Shown: positions 25,781 through 35,641, counted from the stretch's first letter. The stretch: 37,517 nt of DNA from Reclinomonas americana ATCC 50394 (GCA_048213135.1 PS015549.1:1-37517); one strand, 5' to 3'. A program made the numbers and translations. Notes: generated by a model not told the origin, from the letters alone.

Positions 25781-25917
25781 TGTATTCTCTGTAAACGATG
25801 ACCGACGCATGTTATGTTGAGTGGGTCGGGGAGGGGATGGAGGGAAAAATGACTGGACACCAACACGCGATCGATCTGTGAATCGAACCATCATCAATTA
25901 TTGTCAGACCACGAAAC

Positions 25918-26080
25918 ATGGAGAAAAAGCCATGTTTCATGCACCTCCGCAAGGCCGGTGGCTGCAAGCGCGGTGATGCATGTCCATTCGTCCACGCTAC
26001 CACCTGGGCCGATGTGCCAGCCTGCACCAACGGCGATGCATGTCGAGTGGTTGACTGCCCATTCCGTCATCGGAAGGATG
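25918..26080 (+). CDS. Tandem CCCH zinc-finger exon, probable exon 1 of the RBR gene (inverted contig)
   Basis: MEKKPCFMHLRKAGGCKRGDACPFVH...CTNGDACRVVDCPFRH. Its phase-1 donor matches the phase-1 acceptor at 25299. Its intron (26081-26140) matches the reverse complement of 25348-25408. Confidence 0.75.
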
Positions 26081-26107
26081 GTGTGTGTGTGTGTGTGTGC
26101 GTGTGTG

Positions 26108-26139
<32 letters not shown>

Positions 26140-26160
26140 TNNNNNNNNNNNNNNNNNNNN

Positions 26161-27448
26161 GTCGCGAATGTCGCCCGTGCCGGGGAAGTAGTCGCCAAAC
26201 TTGTGGAACGACACTGTCATCACGCGGTCGGTGGTGTAGAACGCCTCCTCCACGCCATCGCCGTGGTGAATGTCAATGTCGATGTACAGCACACGCGCAT
26301 GCACCCTGTGCACACACATACAAAAGAGAGAAAGGTCAGCCAGGCAGAATAAAAAGAGAGAGAGAGAGAAAGAAACGCGCACGGACGCAACTTGAGCAGC
26401 TCCAAGATGCCAAGCACAATGTCGTTGACGTAGCAGAAACCCGACGCCTCGGCCTTCTTGGCATGGTGCAAGCCACCGGCCCAGTTGATGGCAATCTGCA
26501 ATGGCGTGCATTGTGAGAGGAGGAGGCGCAAAGGGGTGCGTAATGCAAGGTGGAACGCACATCAGACTGGCCCGTGTTGAGCTTGACCGCACCGGCCACC
26601 GAGCCGCCAGCACAAATCTGGCAAAACTCATACAGGCCGTCAAAGACCGGGCAATCGTCGCCCACATTGACTGCGGAGGAGGCGGTGAAGGTGAGGGAGG
26701 GAGAAAGAGAGAGGGAGGGAGGGAAAACACGTGGGACGCAACAGAGGCTGAGTTGCCGCGAAAAGTCCTGCATGTTCTCGGGCGAGATTCGCCGCAAGAA
26801 GTCAATGTAGTCGTCCGTGTGGAACTTGGTGAGCTCTTGCTCCGTCGACAAGTGTGGTCTCTGCAGGCGAGTGAAGGTAAGAACGTGAAAGGATAGAGAA
26901 GAAAGCAAAGCAAAATGGTTTGGTGGTGAAAAACGCAACATACACCGACATCTTCTTGTACAGGCCGTAGTTGAGGACGAGGTTGTGTGTCATCTTAATG
27001 CGGTGCGGCTTCATCGGATGGCCTTGGCCATAGTAAAAGTTGCCAATCGCGGCTGCAGGGGGGAAAAAAAAAAGGCGGACACTTTAGCATGGAGCAAAAA
27101 AATAAACACAAACAAAAAGAGGCGGTGCAAGGAGAGAGGGCAGAGCAGGGTAAAAGGACACAAAAGTGACGCGGCAAGAGAGACAGAGAAAGTTTGCGCG
27201 CGCGCGGGATAAAACGAATAAACAAAAAATGTCTTTTTCCTCCGCCCGCTGCAGGCATCACGCACTCGCACCACGCACGACGCACACGCGCACAAACAGA
27301 AAAGCGAGAGGAAAAAACACAGACAAAAAAAGTGCCCGACATTTCACCATGGCAAACACACACAAACACAAACACAAAACAAATGCAAACACACACATCA
27401 CACACTGACGCAACAATCGTAAAAGTACGATATCCGCGGCTTGGACAT
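26161..27448 (-). CDS. Class I histone deacetylase (Rpd3/HDAC1-like), N-terminal half
   Basis: [30 protein letters not shown]...|[12 protein letters not shown]...|[25 protein letters not shown]...|[41 protein letters not shown]. Confidence 0.97.
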
Positions 27449-27699: not shown

Positions 27700-30600
27700 A
27701 TGGCCTCGATTCCTGAGTTCATTCCCATGGCGCATCGGCTGCGACAACAACAACAACAGCAGCAGCAACAACAACAAGCGCAGTTCACTGAGACGGGTGA
27801 TGAAGGCGACTTTGAGGAAGATGAGGGCGAGGAATACTATGATGATGATGAGGAGGGCTACTATGAGGATGAAGACGATGGTCAGTGCCTCTGTCTCTTG
27901 CTGTGTGTGTCTCTATCACTCGCTCACTGATCAATGCGCACAGTTCATTCTGCTGCGGTGCGATGACTTGCTCTCTCTCTTGTCTCTTTCTGCGGGCACA
28001 GTGCTCACACTCCTCCTCCTCATACTGACAGGCGTTCCACCCTCGCTCACTGATGGTGAGTGCTGGCATGGAGGCTAGTGCTGGAGGATCTACTGGTGCT
28101 GCCGCTGCTGCTGCTGCGGCGGCGGCCAGTGGCAGTGGCGACTGGATGGACACGCATCACGTGTGCTGGAATGGAGGCGATGGAGCGGGCGTGTCGGCAG
28201 TGCTGATGGATCCGGCGCGTGAGGTGGTGTGGACCGGCACAGAGACGGTGAATAGCTCGCCTCTCCCCCTCTCCACTGGGGTGTTCTCTGCTCGCTCACA
28301 GCGGTGTTGATGTAGGGCCGAGTGGCGGCGTTCTCGTATCCCGACATGGAACCGCTGGTGGCGTTCCCTACGCAAATGCCCGTGTCGGCGCTGGGGCCTC
28401 TGGGAAAGGCCAGTGAACAGGGTCCGGTGGTGCAGTCGGTGCAGCGCTTGTTGTCGCTGGAGAACGAGCGGCTGCTGTGCTTGACGTCGGTCGCCCTGCG
28501 TGTGTTTGACATTGGCGGAGCTCCGGTGCTCTCGTGTCGGTGCGCGCCATCGTCCCTCGCCCTCCTCTCCGTGCTCTCCTCTCACCTTCCCGCGTCTGCA
28601 GACAAGACCGATTCACCGATCTGCTCTCTGCGTCGCTGTCGGTCACCAAGAAGCACGCCTACGTTGGTGGCAACATGCGATCGCTGTTCGTCGTGGACCT
28701 CGAGCTCGGTCGCCTGTTCACCGAGACGTCGGTGTCCAGTGGTGTGAGCGCACTCTTCACCTCGCCTGGGTCGCTGTGCTACGGCACGACCTCTGGCGAA
28801 GTGTGTCTGTGTGATCCGCGCTCACTGCGGCTGGCGCAAAACATCAAGGCGCACTCGGCAGTCACCGATGTCGCCGTGCAAGACAACCTGGTCGCCTCGT
28901 GCGGATTCATGGAGCGGTCTGTGTATGTGTGTGTGCGTGTCGCCGTCGTTGCTCGCTGCGACTGTGCGCTCACCGTACGTGTTGGTGTGGGCGCGTAGCA
29001 GATACGGCGAATTGTACCCCGACCCCTTCGTCAAGCTGTTCGACACGCGCATGAACGCACTCGTGTCGCAAATCTCGGTGACTGGCGGCAGCATGGCACT
29101 TCGCTTTGTTCCCAACCAGGTTCCGCGGGCATCACCTTTTTCGCACCACCTCCTCCTCCTCCTCCCCCTCATATTTCTCATGTGTTGTGCAGCGGCGACA
29201 CTTGGCGGTGGCGTCGCCGTCGGGCGTGATTGAGTTCCGCGACATTAGCACACCGTCCAACATGCTGTACATGTCGCTGAGCATGATCAACGCTCAACCA
29301 CAATCGCTGCTCTCGTTTGACTTGTCGTCGACTGGCGAGTGCATCGCCGCTGGCGATCGCTACGGCGACTTGCATTCCGTGTCGCGCGTCATTGACTCCA
29401 CGCTCAACTCGCGAGTCGAGTACTTTGACTTGTTGCCGGAGCCGCCGACTTTCGAATCGGTGGCGGTGCCGTTTGAGGCCGTGTTGCGTCCCACATCGTT
29501 GACAGTGGCTGCTCTTATAATTTGGTTGCTCATGCTGCTCCCCCGCCACCCACAGTCCCGTGTTTGCTGCTCCGGCACCGGCCTCCGGTCGCTACGCCTC
29601 TGAATGGCCGACCGACTTGTGCTCGGTTGGCGCTCGCCCGCCCGTCATCAAGTCCTCCATTCAGCAGTCGCTGCGTGTCACCGGATTCGTCGGTGCCATT
29701 TCGAATCCGGGTATCCGTTGCCACGAGCAGGCGTACGTCAAAGTGCGTGGCAAGGCGCGCAAGAAAATCACACTGCAAAGCATCGACGCCAAGGTGAGCT
29801 GCACATCTCCCTTTCTCTCTCGCTGAGAATCTAACGACTCACTTGTTGCGTCTCCACATCCAGGGCTCGCCCTTCCGAGCCATCACGGATGATCTCACGG
29901 AAAAGGCGCAACGGGAACGCATCCCCAAGATCTACCTGCGCGTGGAGAAGAAGCAGTCGGCGGTTTCGTGGGAGGAGTTCGACTTCAAGTTGCGCAGTGA
30001 TGCGCCTTCGTGTTGCTTTTGTTGCCGGTGCCACTCACACGCGCCTCACAGAAAGTACAACAAGACTCGCTTCTGTGGTCTGGAGAACGACTTGCCGAAC
30101 TGCTACGTCAATCCGCTCCTGCAAGTGCTGTACTTTACGCCGCGCTACCGCGATTTCGCCATGCAATACCTGTCCAACGATCGGCAGTTCTGCTTGGCCA
30201 GCGAGTCTGGTTTCCTGTTCCGTTTCGTGGCTCCCGCGACGCAGAGCGCCTTCTCCACCCCCCCCCCCCCCCTCCCTCCTCTCCCTCACACGCAGAGCTT
30301 CCGCAGACATGATGAAGCACTTCAAGGGCGGCACGGCGCAAGCCAAGAACTTTTTGCGCGTCTTCCGTCAGATCCCGCAAGGTGTGCATGTCGTTGTTCA
30401 CACGCGCCCCTTCCTCCTCCTCCTCTTCTAACAACGACGTGCAGCTGCCGCTCTCGGTCTGTTTGACGACATGGTGCAGGCGACACACTCGAGTGAGGAA
30501 CTCGAAGGCTCCGGCGGCAAGATCCAGAAAATGATGCGCTTCACTCTGGAGCACCTCAATCGCCTCCTCACCGAGGACTTGGAGGAGCAGGCCGCGAATC

Positions 30601-32935
30601 AGGCCTTCATCATGAGCCACATGTCGCGACCGCGCAATGCCCGTGGTCGTCAGGCTGCGGCCAGCAGCGAGGGTGGAAGCGGCTCGGAGGTGAGTTGGCG
30701 TGTTGTTCGCTCTCTCCCCCTACTCTCGCACTCGCAAATGTCCCCCGTTGATTCTTGTGCGCTTAGTCGGCGTCGTCGGCTGCACAGTCCCCGTCGACCA
30801 CTGTGATTGAGGACATTTGGGGCTCGATGATCTCCACCATCAATGTGTGCGTGCACTGCCGCACGCGGCACGTGCGCCAAGACCGCTCCTTCTGTCTCGA
30901 CCTGGCGCTGCCGGAGGACTCGTCGCCAGGCTCGCTGTTTGGCCTGCTGGCCTCATCTTTCCGTCGCGAAACCAAAACCAAGGCCTGGTGCAGCAAGTGC
31001 TGCGGCTACCAGCTGACGCAGCAGAAGAAGACTGTCACCGACCTGCCGAATTCAATCATCTTTAACTGCGGGCCTGTGAGCGAGGTTTGTGTGGTGCACG
31101 AAATGAGATGAGAGGATTCGAGGATTCATTTCCCCTCCGCTCATCCACTTCTTTTTTGTTTGTAGAAACTCATGACCAACAGCTTGAATTTGACGGAGGA
31201 AGGGCGCAAGATGCCGCCACGCTTCTTTGTGGACATGTCAAAAGCAGAGGAGGACGGACCAACTGTGGTGGAGAATGTGGACTTGTTTGACGATCGTTCA
31301 CGCTTTGTACAGTACGAGTTGTATGTTGCGTGCATGTCGCAAGCTGCTACCGCTTTGTGTATCATGCTGCTGCTGAGCTCTGGTATCCTTATGCAGGCCT
31401 TGATCGTTGACATTCGCCCACCCGACGACGACGAGGGTCACTTGGCTGCTCTCATCAAGGGTGCGTCGGCAGCGCGTCCCCATCCCTTCCCCTCTCGTGA
31501 TCGCCTAACATTTCCTTCTCTTCTGCACAGTGCCTCGGTCGTACTTTGAGGATGCGCAGTCGGTGGCGTCGCCAACACCAAAGAGTCCCACCGAAGTGAT
31601 GGCGTCGGGACGAGATCGTGAGTGGTTCCTGTTCAACGACTTTCTCATTTTCCCGGAGGACGAGGCGACGGCCATCAACTTTGCCCCGTTCTGGAAGGTA
31701 GCTGCACTGACGCTTTTCTCTGCTTCAATGCTCGGTGATTCTCACAAACATTGTGTGGCGTGATAGTTCCCGTGCATTATGCTGTATGCACGCGAGGGCT
31801 TCCTGGACGAGCCGACACCGTACCGCGGTCGTTTGCACTTGTCCGAGGCCGTGTTCCGTGATCAGGGATTGTCACGGTGAGACTCGCATTTGCTTCATTC
31901 TGCGTACCCCAATCTTGTCAACTGAACCATTCTCCGCCGCCAGCATGCAACCCTCGGCTCTGCGCTCCTTCCGCGCTCTCGATCTGCACGAGAACTGCAA
32001 GGGCCAACTGGTGGCAATTGATGCCGAGTTTGTTGCCCTCACCAAGGTTTGTGTAGGCTATTGGATGTGTGCGCGTTTGCACACCAATGTATTCATTGTG
32101 GAGCAGGAGGAGCGCAAGATGCTGCACGACGGCACAAGCGTGGTGGTCACGCCACCCATTCTGTCGCTGGCTCGTGTGTCGGTGCTGCGCGGCGGTGGGC
32201 CAATGGAGGGCGTGCCGTTCATCGACGACTACATTCACACGCCGGAGCAAGTGTCGGACTACTTGACGCGTTTCTCGGGCCTCGTGCCGGGAGACCTCGA
32301 TCCGAGTGTGTCGCGACACTTTGTCACGTCGCTGAAGGTGAAGGACTGAGTGAGGATTTGTGTTGGTGGTTGTGCTTTGCCTAACGGTGATTGGACGCAG
32401 GCGGCCTACTTGAAGCTGCGCTACCTGGTGGACAACAAGTGCATCTTTGTCGGCCACGGTCTGAAGAAGGACTTTAAGATCATCAGTTGCGATTTCTTCA
32501 ATTACGTGTATGTTGCAGCTGTCGTCATGCTCACTCTCCACCGCAGACATTTATGTTCCCGAGGAGCAGATGCGTGACACGGTGGAGTTGTTCAGCCTGA
32601 AGCAGCAGCGAAAGGTACGGCGGAGGAAAGGGCAGTGGAGGAAAGACTCGTGATGCTCATTCTGCTGTTCTTTAGCTGTCGCTTCGATTCTTGGCGATGC
32701 ACGTGCTGCGCGAGAACATTCAGGAGCAGACCCACGACAGTATCGAAGACGCGAGGACGGTGAGTGTCTGTCTGTGTGTGTCGGCTTCCCCCGCGTTGCT
32801 TCCTCACCACTGCGCCAGGCACTTCTGTTGTACAAGCGGTACTGCGAGCTGCAACAAGCCGGTACATTTGATCAGAAGCTCGAGGAACTGTACGCTATTG
32901 GTCGTCGCACAAACTGGCAAGTGGGTGGCAGATGA
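27700..32935 (+). CDS. PAN2: PAN2 deadenylase (WD40 - USP/UCH - DEDD exonuclease), about 23 exons
   Basis: WD40 region (DPFVKLFDTRM, SFDLSSTGECIAAGD). EEFDFKKYNKTRFCGLEN. Exonuclease motifs VAIDAEFVAL, LARVSVLRG, PFIDDYI, DYLTRFSGL, FVGHGLKKDF, THDSIEDART. Stop at 32933-32935. Confidence 0.96.
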
Positions 32936-33031
32936 CACAACGCTGCTTAAGTAAACACACTTCGTAATCCACGCAAACTGTCACTCCGACTTGTCCTACG
33001 ACGAATCACATCTCAGCGTCGTCTCTTGCGA

Positions 33032-35641
33032 ATGAGCGATCCACTGCTGCATGCCTGTGCCTTTGACTTGCTGGGCGATCATGCCTGGGAGCTCATTGCG
33101 CGGTTTCTCAACTTGTTGCGTCGCACAGGCTGTCTCCCTCACTCTTCCCCTCGTTTATGCGAGTTGTCTCACATGTGTCGCCAGTCGCGACTACACAATG
33201 TCCTGGCGCGTGTGCACTCGTCTGTGCGAGCTGCTGGAGACGCACATGAGTCGCATGCGACTAACACCCTTTGACGTGGCGCAACGCGGCGATCTGATTG
33301 TCACTGTGGATCACGTTCGCGCGCGTTTTCCGCGACTGATTGCTCTCGATCTGGGCGGCTTTGCGTTGGGCTTTGAGGGTGCCCAGTCGTTCGCACAAGT
33401 GCTGGCACGACACAGCAACTTTGTGGAACTCGATCTGACGCGTTGCGTTCCCCTCTTATCTCGATCACTGTGTGGAAATGGTCAATGACTGAAGAAGCCA
33501 CAGAGAACAACTTGCGACTGGGTGGTTCGCGAGTGGTGGGAGCTGCTGTGGCGGGATGCAGTCGACTGCAACGGCTTATGCTGGGCAAGAACGGCATTGG
33601 TCCGCAGGGACTGGCGGCGATTGTGCATGCTGTCGTGCAGTCCGAGTCGTTGACGGAGCTCGACTTGCGCAGCAACGGCATCACGCACGAGGGTGCGCAC
33701 CAGCTGGAGACACTGTTGAGAGGTACGAGGTGGGATGGAGTCGGGGAACGAGGCGGGCTTTTTGCTCACTCCTTGTCGTCGCGCGCGCAGAGAACGACAC
33801 GATCACGCACTTGGATTTGTCGGGCAACCGACTGCGTGCGTTGGGTGCGGCGGCAGTGGGTCGTGGCCTCGGTGTGAATCAATCGCTGCGCAGTCTGTCG
33901 CTGGCCGACACGAGTCTCGGCGACGAGGGCGTGATGGCCCTGTGCCGGTTTGGCGAGGCCGTACCGGATGCTGCGGAGGCGGCAGCGATGGAGGGCGAAG
34001 GCGCCCCTGCGGGAGCGGCGCCAGTGATCGACGTGGATGTGAAACCCGACAATGAGAGGCTCGCTGGCAACTTTACGCTGGAGCGCCTTGTGCTGACAAA
34101 GAACAACATTACGGGGGACGGCACGAAGGTGTTGCTGACGGCGGTGGGTGCGCCGCGCAGTCGGGTGTGTGATTTGGTGTTGGACAGCAATCAGTTGTCA
34201 TCGGAGGGCTCCTACGCCATTGGCGAGATGATTCGCGCACGGGTGAATGCCATTGCGCCGCTGAAGAGGATATCGCTGAAGGCCAACGAGATTGGGCCGG
34301 CGGGTGCACGGTGGCTGGCGACGGCGTTGGAGGCGACTCGCTCGCGGGTCAGTCTGGTGTTGGATGGTGCGTGTGCGTGAGGGTGGGCGAGGTGAGAGGC
34401 GGTGTGGTTAAGTGAATGTCGCACCGCGCAGGCAACACACTCGGCGGCACCGGTGTGCAACTGATGATGGAGAAGGTGCCGGTGACGCTGCTGAATCAAA
34501 TGAGTTTCCGAGGTTGGTTGCCGATGCTTGGTTTCTTTTGTGTGTCGGCCACTGACTGCGGCGTCGCACGAAATCAACAGACAACGGCATTGGCGAGCGC
34601 GGCATGCGTGCAGTGTCGGAGCGACTGGTTACGCTGGGGCGCATTCTCCTTGTTTTTCTTGGTCGCAGTGGCTGATTGTCGTCGTGCAGAGCATTAGCGG
34701 CATCCGGCGTGTGCACTTGGGCGGCAACGATCTGGGTGAACCCGGTGCCATGCTGTTGTACGAGGGACTGAAGGATCACACGCGGTTAACGGAGCTGCTC
34801 GTGCCATGTTGCGTTGTGTGATGTCGCCGATTGCTTCGCTCGACAGGGATTGACAGTTGATGGTGGTACGTGCAGCCAACAAGTTTGGCAAGGAGGGCGC
34901 GGTGTGGATTGCCCGACTGCTGACGGAGAATCGGTACATTGAGACGCTGTCGCTGGAGTGTTGCGTCGCTGCGCTCGTGCCTGCGCCACCTCACGCCACT
35001 CCGTGACCATTTCATCCTGCACACCACAGCCAATAGCCTGCGCGACAAGGGCTGCCTCATTGTCACCGAGGCACTTTCCGAAGGCCGCAATACGTCGCTG
35101 CGTCGTCTCAACCTGTCGTGGAATCACATTGAGGCGGAGGGCGTGCGGCCGTGGCAGTTCATGCTGCGCGACAACCAGACCCTGACTGAAATCGACATGA
35201 GGTGTGGGAGATTGTGTTTTCATCCCACACCTGATGTGGCTGACTTGCGTGCACGCAGCGCCAACCTGATCGACCCAGAAGGTGTCGCGTGGATTGCCAC
35301 AGGTGCGGAATGATGCTCGTCGTCGGGGGGGAGAGGAAAAAAACTCACCAATATACTACAGGGCTGGCTGGCAACCATTCGTTGGTCGGCCTCAGTTTGG
35401 CGTACAACCAGGTGTGGCCCGACGGCGCACAGTGCATCTACGACGCCCTGCAGCAGAATACCACCATTCGGAGAGTTGCGTCCACATTTTGCCAGGGCAT
35501 GCACGAGGAGCGACTCACACCCCATGAACACAGTTGGACCTCTCCGCCACCATCACTGGCGAGTCCGGGCCCAAGCTACTGCTCACGGCCATGCGCGAAA
35601 GAAGAGAGCGCAATCTGCCTCGCGTCGTGATCTCTCTCTAG
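33032..35641 (+). CDS. F-box-like plus RI-type leucine-rich-repeat protein
   Basis: N-terminal FDLLGDHAWELIARFLNFRDYTMSWRVCTRLCELL (F-box-like), then more than 15 LxxLxLxxNxIGxxG repeats over about 11 exons. TAG at 35639-35641. Confidence 0.85.

Follow-up and report, generated by a model that had tools for sequence, protein, structure and literature searches.

Does the ubiquitin-specific protease (USP)-like domain of PAN2, the textbook pseudo-deubiquitinase, still act on ubiquitin where its catalytic residues are all in place? The question is raised by a PAN2 gene on a stretch of 37,517 nucleotides from Reclinomonas americana ATCC 50394 (GCA_048213135.1 PS015549.1; hereafter the window, whose positions we use throughout), in which an initial annotation had noticed a complete set of USP catalytic residues and had proposed a possibly active deubiquitinase coupled to deadenylation. 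Natural PAN2s with such a complete set offer a clean test of the matter, and even the activity of human PAN2 (USP52) is disputed in print. Our analysis suggests that the USP-like domain of the window is probably a scaffold pseudo-protease, whose Cys, at the place of the nucleophile, is a relic or a variant that is tolerated there. This Cys state is shared with most green algae and is more likely a leftover than a sign of activity; from the gene, its residues, their alignment and their distribution among orthologues, all of which were read directly, we infer that deubiquitinase activity is most likely absent.

The DNA of the window is eukaryotic in character, with short GT-AG introns, and the gene, whose exon model was built from homology and GT-AG rules only, is by its sequence an ordinary PAN2, the predicted catalytic subunit of the PAN2-PAN3 poly(A) nuclease. 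It encodes, in this order, a WD40 part, a linker, a PAN2-type USP-like domain and a DEDDh exonuclease. Two single exons of the USP-like domain score well above the UCH_1 (PF13423) cut-off of 22.2 bits (Table 1), and on UCH (PF00443), the model of canonical USPs, the Cys-box exon alone reaches 22.2 bits, short of the cut-off of 23.9. At the other end of the protein, the exonuclease motifs AIDAEF, KDF and THDSIEDA (DEDDh) are all intact in the translation, and the single exon 32107-32337 scores 16.3 bits on RNase_T. A protein search with this exon gave 558 matches at E<=0.001 among 667 candidates (top E 8e-28), and the named ones were all PAN2; the best match was a 145-residue fragment with 79% identity, the collection lacking the protein of the window itself. 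A search of longer proteins with the Cys-box exon yielded 1 candidate and no match, and is uninformative. When metagenome contigs were scanned with the exonuclease exon, 59 loci were found, the best of them 67% identical and so none a close relative.

The residues themselves are where the initial annotation had placed them. The Cys-box exon translates as GLENDLPNCYVNPLLQVL and carries the oxyanion-hole Asn and the Cys at the USP spacing. An alignment that could have moved this Cys off the catalytic position (phmmer, Cys-box exon against PDB chains) set it instead on a Cys that we take to be catalytic, that of the N-T-C motif in USP47 (8itn) and USP1 (7ay0). The same program aligned it with Ala in human PAN2 (9qtu_C), Ser in Neurospora crassa (4czw) and His in yeast (4q8g). 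The His and the Asn-Asp pair, identified in the window by motif and by alignment within PAN2, were likewise found in the exon model: the intron predicted after YELY is borne out in it (GT..AG), the His is encoded in the short exon that follows it, the Asn-Asp lies in the WFLFNDF exon, and both CxxC pairs of the finger are present. Human PAN2 was said to lack both Cys and His, and indeed it shows Ala and Ser at these positions (the latter in a weak alignment, E 1.4) and keeps the Asn-Asp. The parallel statement that fungal PAN2s lack the Cys holds for yeast and N. crassa and fails for Tulasnella, Dacryopinax, Dimargaris, Sorochytrium and Diversispora, all of which carry it.

How much these residues say depends on how common they are, which we examined in PAN2s gathered independently of the Cys box. 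One set held 69 proteins of at least 600 residues among the 120 listed from the exonuclease-exon search; the other held the best 150 of 1415 matches (E<=1e-30) of a 44-sequence full-length PAN2 profile against 1.84 billion cluster representatives. Together they comprise 214 different proteins, which were aligned with a hidden Markov model of the USP domain (215 rows with the window). The Asn of the Asn-Asp box is present in 213 of the 214 and the Asp in 208; the His position holds His in 175 and Asn in 28, the latter being presumably mostly animal PAN2s; and all four zinc-ribbon Cys are found in 131. Since the His, the Asn-Asp and the finger are the family norm, in lineages described in the literature as inactive too, they say nothing on activity, and only the Cys is informative. 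The oxyanion column has Asn in 63 proteins and Thr in 96. At the nucleophile position we counted Ser in 137, Ala in 28, Cys in 23, Thr in 6, Val in 3, seven singletons and a gap in 11, so that 23 of the 203 proteins having a residue there (about 1 in 9) bear Cys, and 17 of the 214 show the whole Asn-Cys-His-Asn-Asp pattern. The Cys state of the window is a minority state and is not unique. The orthologue alignment suggested with the initial annotation leaves the Cys as the informative residue and removes the His, the Asn-Asp and the finger from the argument. Ser, the commonest residue of the nucleophile column (137 of the 215 rows), stands beside a nearly universal His and Asn-Asp, so that most PAN2s formally carry a Ser-His-Asn set.

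A third set, seeded with the exonuclease region of Mesostigma (at E<=0.001, 8000 scored candidates gave 1391 matches; of the 120 listed, 101 were new), was picked for its likeness to green algae, and the 44 Cys-bearers among its 101 proteins are therefore not a frequency. The full set of residues is found in Mesostigma viride, Chlorokybus, Cymbomonas, Chloropicon primus, Ostreobium, Chlamydomonas eustigma, Chlorella vulgaris, two Micractinium, three Coccomyxa, three Trebouxia, Myrmecia, Apatococcus and Symbiochloris. The PAN2 of Ostreococcus tauri has the Asn and the Cys, its His column being an alignment gap; Chara, three mosses, Bryopsis and Auxenochlorella have Ser at the Cys position, and Elliptochloris has Gly. 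Among the fungi, Dimargaris bears the Cys with the full set; Sorochytrium, Tulasnella and Dacryopinax bear it with Thr at the oxyanion position; and Diversispora reads T-C-N-N-D, its Cys being present and its His lost. Some individual proteins deserve mention: with Cys at the nucleophile position, P0433 (Diversispora epigaea) has Asn and P0026 (Tulasnella sp. 331) has Ala at the His position, and P0026 may be a gene-model error, the surroundings of its His position being unlike those of other PAN2s. In P0406 and P0419 (Auxenochlorella protothecoides), which have BRCT-type domains (PF16770, PF00533), the USP alignment stops before the His box; each is probably a fused or mis-modelled gene. Further afield, the PAN2 of Trypanosoma brucei is described as having Lys at the Cys position and Asp at the His position (in part of PMC2760810), and PAN2 and PAN3 are reported from Chlamydomonas and Physcomitrium, vascular plants having lost both (in part of PMC13130582).

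Trees were built from the USP-plus-exonuclease region after removal of the five trait columns, and are unrooted; a row was excluded if any of the five positions was a gap, or if it had under 550 residues counted from where the USP domain starts (18 of 214 rows for the 197-row tree and 28 of 315 for the 288-row tree). With FastTree, the minimum number of switches between Cys and non-Cys is 15 on the 197 rows, starred branches forcing 10 of them, and 21 on the 288 rows, of which 17 are forced. A green clade of 83 rows (support 100) takes in all the named green algae and the mosses, and the nine remaining database Cys-bearers fall among the fungal rows, which leaves the window as the only Cys-bearer in neither the green-algal nor the fungal group. 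It nests among PAN2 rows in all trees (the rows being all PAN2 matches, with no outgroup), lies outside the green clade (support 100 and 99), and pairs weakly (FastTree 90; IQ-TREE SH-like approximate likelihood ratio test 82) with a transcriptome protein that has His at the Cys position. Around this pair, in an unresolved set, are Rhodelphis and other protists carrying Ser or Ala, and the top identity of the window to any row of the 197- and 288-row alignments is 49%. Membership of the window in a metagenomic group with the Cys box GLTNDLANCY was considered and rejected, since in the trees that group falls within the green clade, to which the window does not belong.

What do these trees say of the origin of the Cys? 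In an approximately unbiased (AU) test on 51 rows, a position of the window as sister of the green clade is not rejected (log-likelihood difference 0.16, p-AU 0.50), and the trees thus fit a shared retention and a separate history alike; since they are unrooted, a gain and a loss of Cys look the same in them. The domain descends from a cysteine protease, so the Cys was once ancestral. The ancestral retention that the initial annotation had proposed is plausible for the residue, given the N-C-H-N-D majority in the deep green clade and the p-AU of the sister position.

The comparative evidence on whether the Cys is used comes from four observations. (i) In the 83 rows of the green clade, the nucleophile column has Cys in 58, Ser in 13, Ala in 8, Gly in 2 and Thr in 2; at 70% conservation, it ranks 108 among 314 USP columns, whereas the His, Asn and Asp are 100% conserved (ranks 1-4) and the oxyanion Asn 98%. 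Of all residues, the nucleophile of a functioning cysteine protease should vary last, yet the Cys is the least conserved of the set, which counts against an active enzyme. (ii) Some Cys-bearing PAN2s are without the oxyanion Asn or the His, so that the Cys can occupy its position in the absence of a triad. (iii) Cys-bearing PAN2s are no more USP-like than Ser-bearing ones: on PF00443, 20 Cys-bearers have a mean of 39.2 bits (27.9-48.8) and 17 others a mean of 43.0 bits (20.2-70.7), the top scorers (68.7 and 70.7 bits) are Ser-bearing, and all tested proteins score 135-353 bits on UCH_1. (iv) The rest of the domain is hardly affected where the Cys has gone, although decay of other cleft residues would be expected if an activity had gone with it: of the columns conserved to 90% or more across the 58 Cys-bearing rows of the green clade, conservation in the 25 non-Cys rows was 0.92 for 49 USP columns and 0.95 for 71 exonuclease columns, the largest single-column drops being alike in both domains. 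With a nucleophile that is the least conserved member of the set, that occurs apart from its partners and that brings no gain in USP-likeness, the step from the presence of a triad to an active deubiquitinase finds no support in this evidence.

Direct comparison with canonical USPs also leans towards a pseudo-protease. The 100-residue stretch from the His to the Asn-Asp of a Cys-bearing PAN2 found no canonical USP in the PDB at E<=10, the matches being a weak one to human PAN2 and others due to chance, and the His-box exon (21 residues) and USP exon 3 (81 residues) of the window had no PDB match at the same threshold. In canonical USPs, the QQDxxEF box gives acidic contacts to the basic tail of ubiquitin; the PAN2 segment I-Q-x-F-x-R-F-L-L-E-Q-L has instead, in either register, a conserved Arg (present in 21 of 24 Cys-bearing rows) and variable, non-acidic residues at the matched places. 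The positions that we take to be those of the acidic ubiquitin-tail binders are Lys, Lys and Arg in the window and non-acidic in most PAN2s, those with Cys among them. Similarly, canonical USPs have Tyr after the His (GHY consensus), and Leu follows it directly in 183 of the 215 rows, the window included. Both points rest on a comparison of motifs rather than on a computed alignment to canonical USPs, and so carry little weight.

A scaffold role would account for this pattern. Judged by the homologous complexes of yeast and human, an asymmetric PAN3 dimer would be bound by the WD40 domain together with the linker, the USP-like domain would make up a single rigid unit with the DEDDh exonuclease, and the exonuclease would trim poly(A) tails from the 3' end, the USP-like domain serving as scaffold and as wall of the nuclease cavity rather than as protease. 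The Cys would then be a relic of an active USP ancestor, or one of the small residues tolerated at this place (Cys, Ser, Ala, Thr, Gly), and the His and Asn-Asp, present in nearly all PAN2s, would owe their conservation to something other than the cutting of ubiquitin. In excerpts of the structural literature, the USP/UCH domain of PAN2 is described as inactive and packed on the exonuclease as a rigid unit (PMC10590902, PMC4158885, PMC7116106, PMC10318531), and conserved residues of the UCH-like domain are reported to help shape the entrance of the nuclease cavity (part of PMC6547884), which offers a reason for the frozen His and Asn-Asp.

It is unlikely, in our judgement, that the domain, here as in the Cys-bearing PAN2s of green algae, works as a cysteine protease that acts on ubiquitin or a ubiquitin-like protein and is coupled to deadenylation, with the Ser and Ala lineages having lost the activity independently. 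Several observations nevertheless speak for it and weigh against a pseudo-protease: (i) the Asn-Cys-His-Asn(Asp) set is complete at exactly the canonical spacing, with its Cys in register with that of USP47 and USP1, and the zinc ribbon is intact. (ii) The Cys is the majority state of a deep clade, being retained in 58 of 83 green rows across very deep splits (Mesostigma and Chlorokybus versus chlorophytes), which implies that the site is under some constraint. (iii) In the green rows without Cys, retention is a little lower for the USP columns (0.92) than for the exonuclease columns (0.95), at most a faint signal; at 43 of the 49 highly conserved USP columns, the window has the majority residue of the Cys group. 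(iv) Within the green clade, 13 Cys-bearers average 39.1 bits on PF00443 versus 28.3 for 6 non-Cys rows, a gap that, on a rough estimate, is about the weight of one invariant column. (v) There are precedents: parts of PMC5876348, reviewed in PMC10919355, report human USP52 to be an active deubiquitinase that lacks the triad and works through unidentified residues, and USP53 and USP54, long annotated as dead, are reported active (part of PMC12037411). In PMC5876348 itself, however, fungal structures are described, in the part concerned, as incompatible with catalysis.

Against a working enzyme stand also the many losses of the nucleophile beside partners that never vary in the green clade, its occurrence apart from the oxyanion Asn or the His, a canonical-USP similarity no higher than that of Ser-bearing PAN2s, and acidic ubiquitin-tail binders that are apparently not kept. 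A wider form of the idea, in which PAN2 began as a deubiquitinase-deadenylase fusion and the Asn-Cys-His-Asn(Asp) lineages go on taking ubiquitin, or some tag like it, off proteins at the poly(A) tail complex, we regard as doubtful; and that most green algae, a few early fungi and the lineage of the window should have retained this activity, with independent losses in animals, most fungi, mosses and trypanosomes, seems to us improbable in like degree.

Less probable still is a use of the Cys that is not proteolytic, either as a redox-sensitive or modifiable thiol tuning the exonuclease or as part of a ubiquitin-binding site that does not cleave. The moderate constraint on the Cys site in green algae would fit such a role, as would the reports, from parts of the papers concerned, that the USP-like and exonuclease domains are one rigid unit (PMC7116106) and that the catalytic Cys of USPs is easily oxidised (PMC3615374), but close relatives freely have Ser, Ala, Gly or Thr in its stead, which speaks against any need for a thiol. 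An artefactual Cys, produced by an error in base calling, an allele or a mistaken exon model, is very improbable: one base separates Ser and Cys codons, and an independent DNA contig that matches the window exactly spans 31343-31839 only, away from the Cys codon (three RNA runs with the same species label had 0 reads on the stretch, which says nothing either way), but this codon is in the middle of an exon, within 56 open codons whose translation aligns along its whole length with the Cys boxes of PAN2s, and its flanking motif is that of Cys-bearing green algae, for example GLENDLPNCY in Chlorokybus.

We return to the scaffold pseudo-protease, which the evidence as a whole favours, and to what the window contributes. 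It adds a phylogenetically isolated lineage with a Cys state that is already common in public sequences, and its novelty is modest; full-text literature searches found no mention of Cys-bearing PAN2 orthologues. Should such PAN2s prove able to cut ubiquitin, a single polypeptide would unite the decay of mRNA with ubiquitin signalling, and the PAN2s of animals and fungi would be enzymes that have decayed. Should they prove unable, PAN2 would be a well-sampled dead enzyme whose nucleophile drifts and whose old active site is otherwise frozen for a structural job. A Cys-dependent deubiquitinase activity keeps a slim chance, and the carriers of the complete catalytic set include algae that can be grown in culture, such as Chlorella vulgaris, Coccomyxa and Chloropicon primus.

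Table 1. The PAN2 gene of the window: modelled exons and residues discussed in the text
Feature	Position	Strand	Remarks
PAN2 gene as modelled	28053..32935	+	~21 exons, introns ~55-85 nt, frame open throughout; start codon tentative
WD40 (PAN2_N) and linker exons, first part	28053-28247, 28316-28539, 28602-28916, 28999-29119	+	
WD40 and linker exons, second part	29193-~29497, 29556-29793, 29864-29988	+	region ends 29988
USP-like exon 1, Cys box	30052..30221	+	UCH_1 54.2 bits; PDB alignments to PAN2 and USP chains
Oxyanion-hole Asn (GLxN)	30086..30088	+	codon AAC, four residues past Gly-Leu
Cys at USP nucleophile position	30101..30103	+	codon TGC, mid-exon
USP-like exon 2	30307..30381	+	frame joins ...GFLF to HMMKHF..., as in PAN2 consensus
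USP-like exon 3	30445..30689	+	IQ..RF..E.L motif and Ser/Ala/Gly-rich insert
USP-like exon 4, zinc ribbon	30767..31084	+	UCH_1 63.2 bits
Zinc-ribbon CxxC pairs	30848-30859, 30989-31000	+	
USP-like exon 5	31166..31324	+	YELY at end
His-box exon	31397..31460	+	translation ...EGHLAALIK
His-box His	31439..31441	+	codon CAC
WFLFNDF exon	31531..31697	+	aligns to WYLFNDF of human PAN2
Asn-Asp in WFLFNDF	31635..31640	+	
USP-like domain end and connector	31767..31876	+	
DEDDh exonuclease exons, first part	31944-32046, 32107-32337, 32401-32485	+	exonuclease region 31944..32935
DEDDh exonuclease exons, second part	32547-32614, 32676-32759, 32819-32935	+	last exon ends with stop

The model is least certain in its 5' part. 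PAN2_N (PF20770) scores 23 bits (E 5e-5) on exon 28603-28914 alone, against a whole-protein cut-off of 26.6; the 5' end of the gene is ambiguous, as is the choice among the donor candidates 29470, 29482, 29497 and 29524. Upstream lies an ATG open reading frame (27700-27880, + strand) with a poly-Gln run followed by an Asp/Glu/Tyr-rich stretch and a GT at its end. It was tried as a 5' exon of PAN2 and dropped, having no in-frame join to the PAN2 exons; it could be a separate small gene, an upstream open reading frame or a mis-joined 5' exon. The intergenic DNA upstream of PAN2 (27240-27420 and 27060-27130) is rich in (ACACAAAC)-like and poly-A/G simple sequence. Beyond it, exons of a class I histone deacetylase occupy 25812-26994 on the - strand, the gene being interrupted by an N run (a sequence gap) near 26.1 kb. 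Directly downstream of PAN2, at ~33000-35300 on the + strand, is a gene with RNI-type leucine-rich repeats (units of the form ...L.L..N.IG..GA..LA...).

How does the PAN2 of the window compare with known systems? The PAN2s of human, Saccharomyces cerevisiae and N. crassa (9QTU, 4Q8G/4Q8H/6R5K and 4CZW, respectively) have the same WD40-linker-UCH_1-DEDDh order, share the WxLFNDF box and align with the Cys-box exon over its full length, and differ from the window in the active site: where the window has Cys, they carry Ala, His and Ser, respectively; the oxyanion Asn is shared with N. crassa and replaced by Pro in human and yeast; and the His is Ser in the human protein, in the weak alignment already mentioned. 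Closer in these residues are the green-algal PAN2s, with the same N-C-H-N-D and a near-identical Cys box, GLEN[DGN]..NCY.N.LLQV, although the window lies outside their clade and the rows closest to it have His, Ser or Ala in place of the Cys.

With the canonical USPs (USP7, USP1 and USP47; PF00443, peptidase family C19), the window shares the Asn and Cys of the Cys box, in register, and by motif the His-box His and the Asn-Asp; its domain is instead of the PAN2 type, its relatives scoring 135-353 bits on UCH_1 versus 20-71 bits on PF00443, and Leu follows its His in place of the Tyr of the GHY consensus. Active C19 proteases are expected to have an invariant nucleophile, which the PAN2 column, with 23 Cys in 203 and at least 21 changes, does not show. 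Other USP folds have been recruited elsewhere and are debated as to their catalytic status, as described in parts of PMC10919355 and PMC12037411 for USP53/USP54 and USP39/Sad1. USP53 and USP54 were annotated as inactive pseudoenzymes (part of PMC12037411), and USP39 is described as lacking the triad residues (part of PMC10919355), all of which the PAN2 of the window has. It is the family context of PAN2 that argues that in the window these residues are unused.

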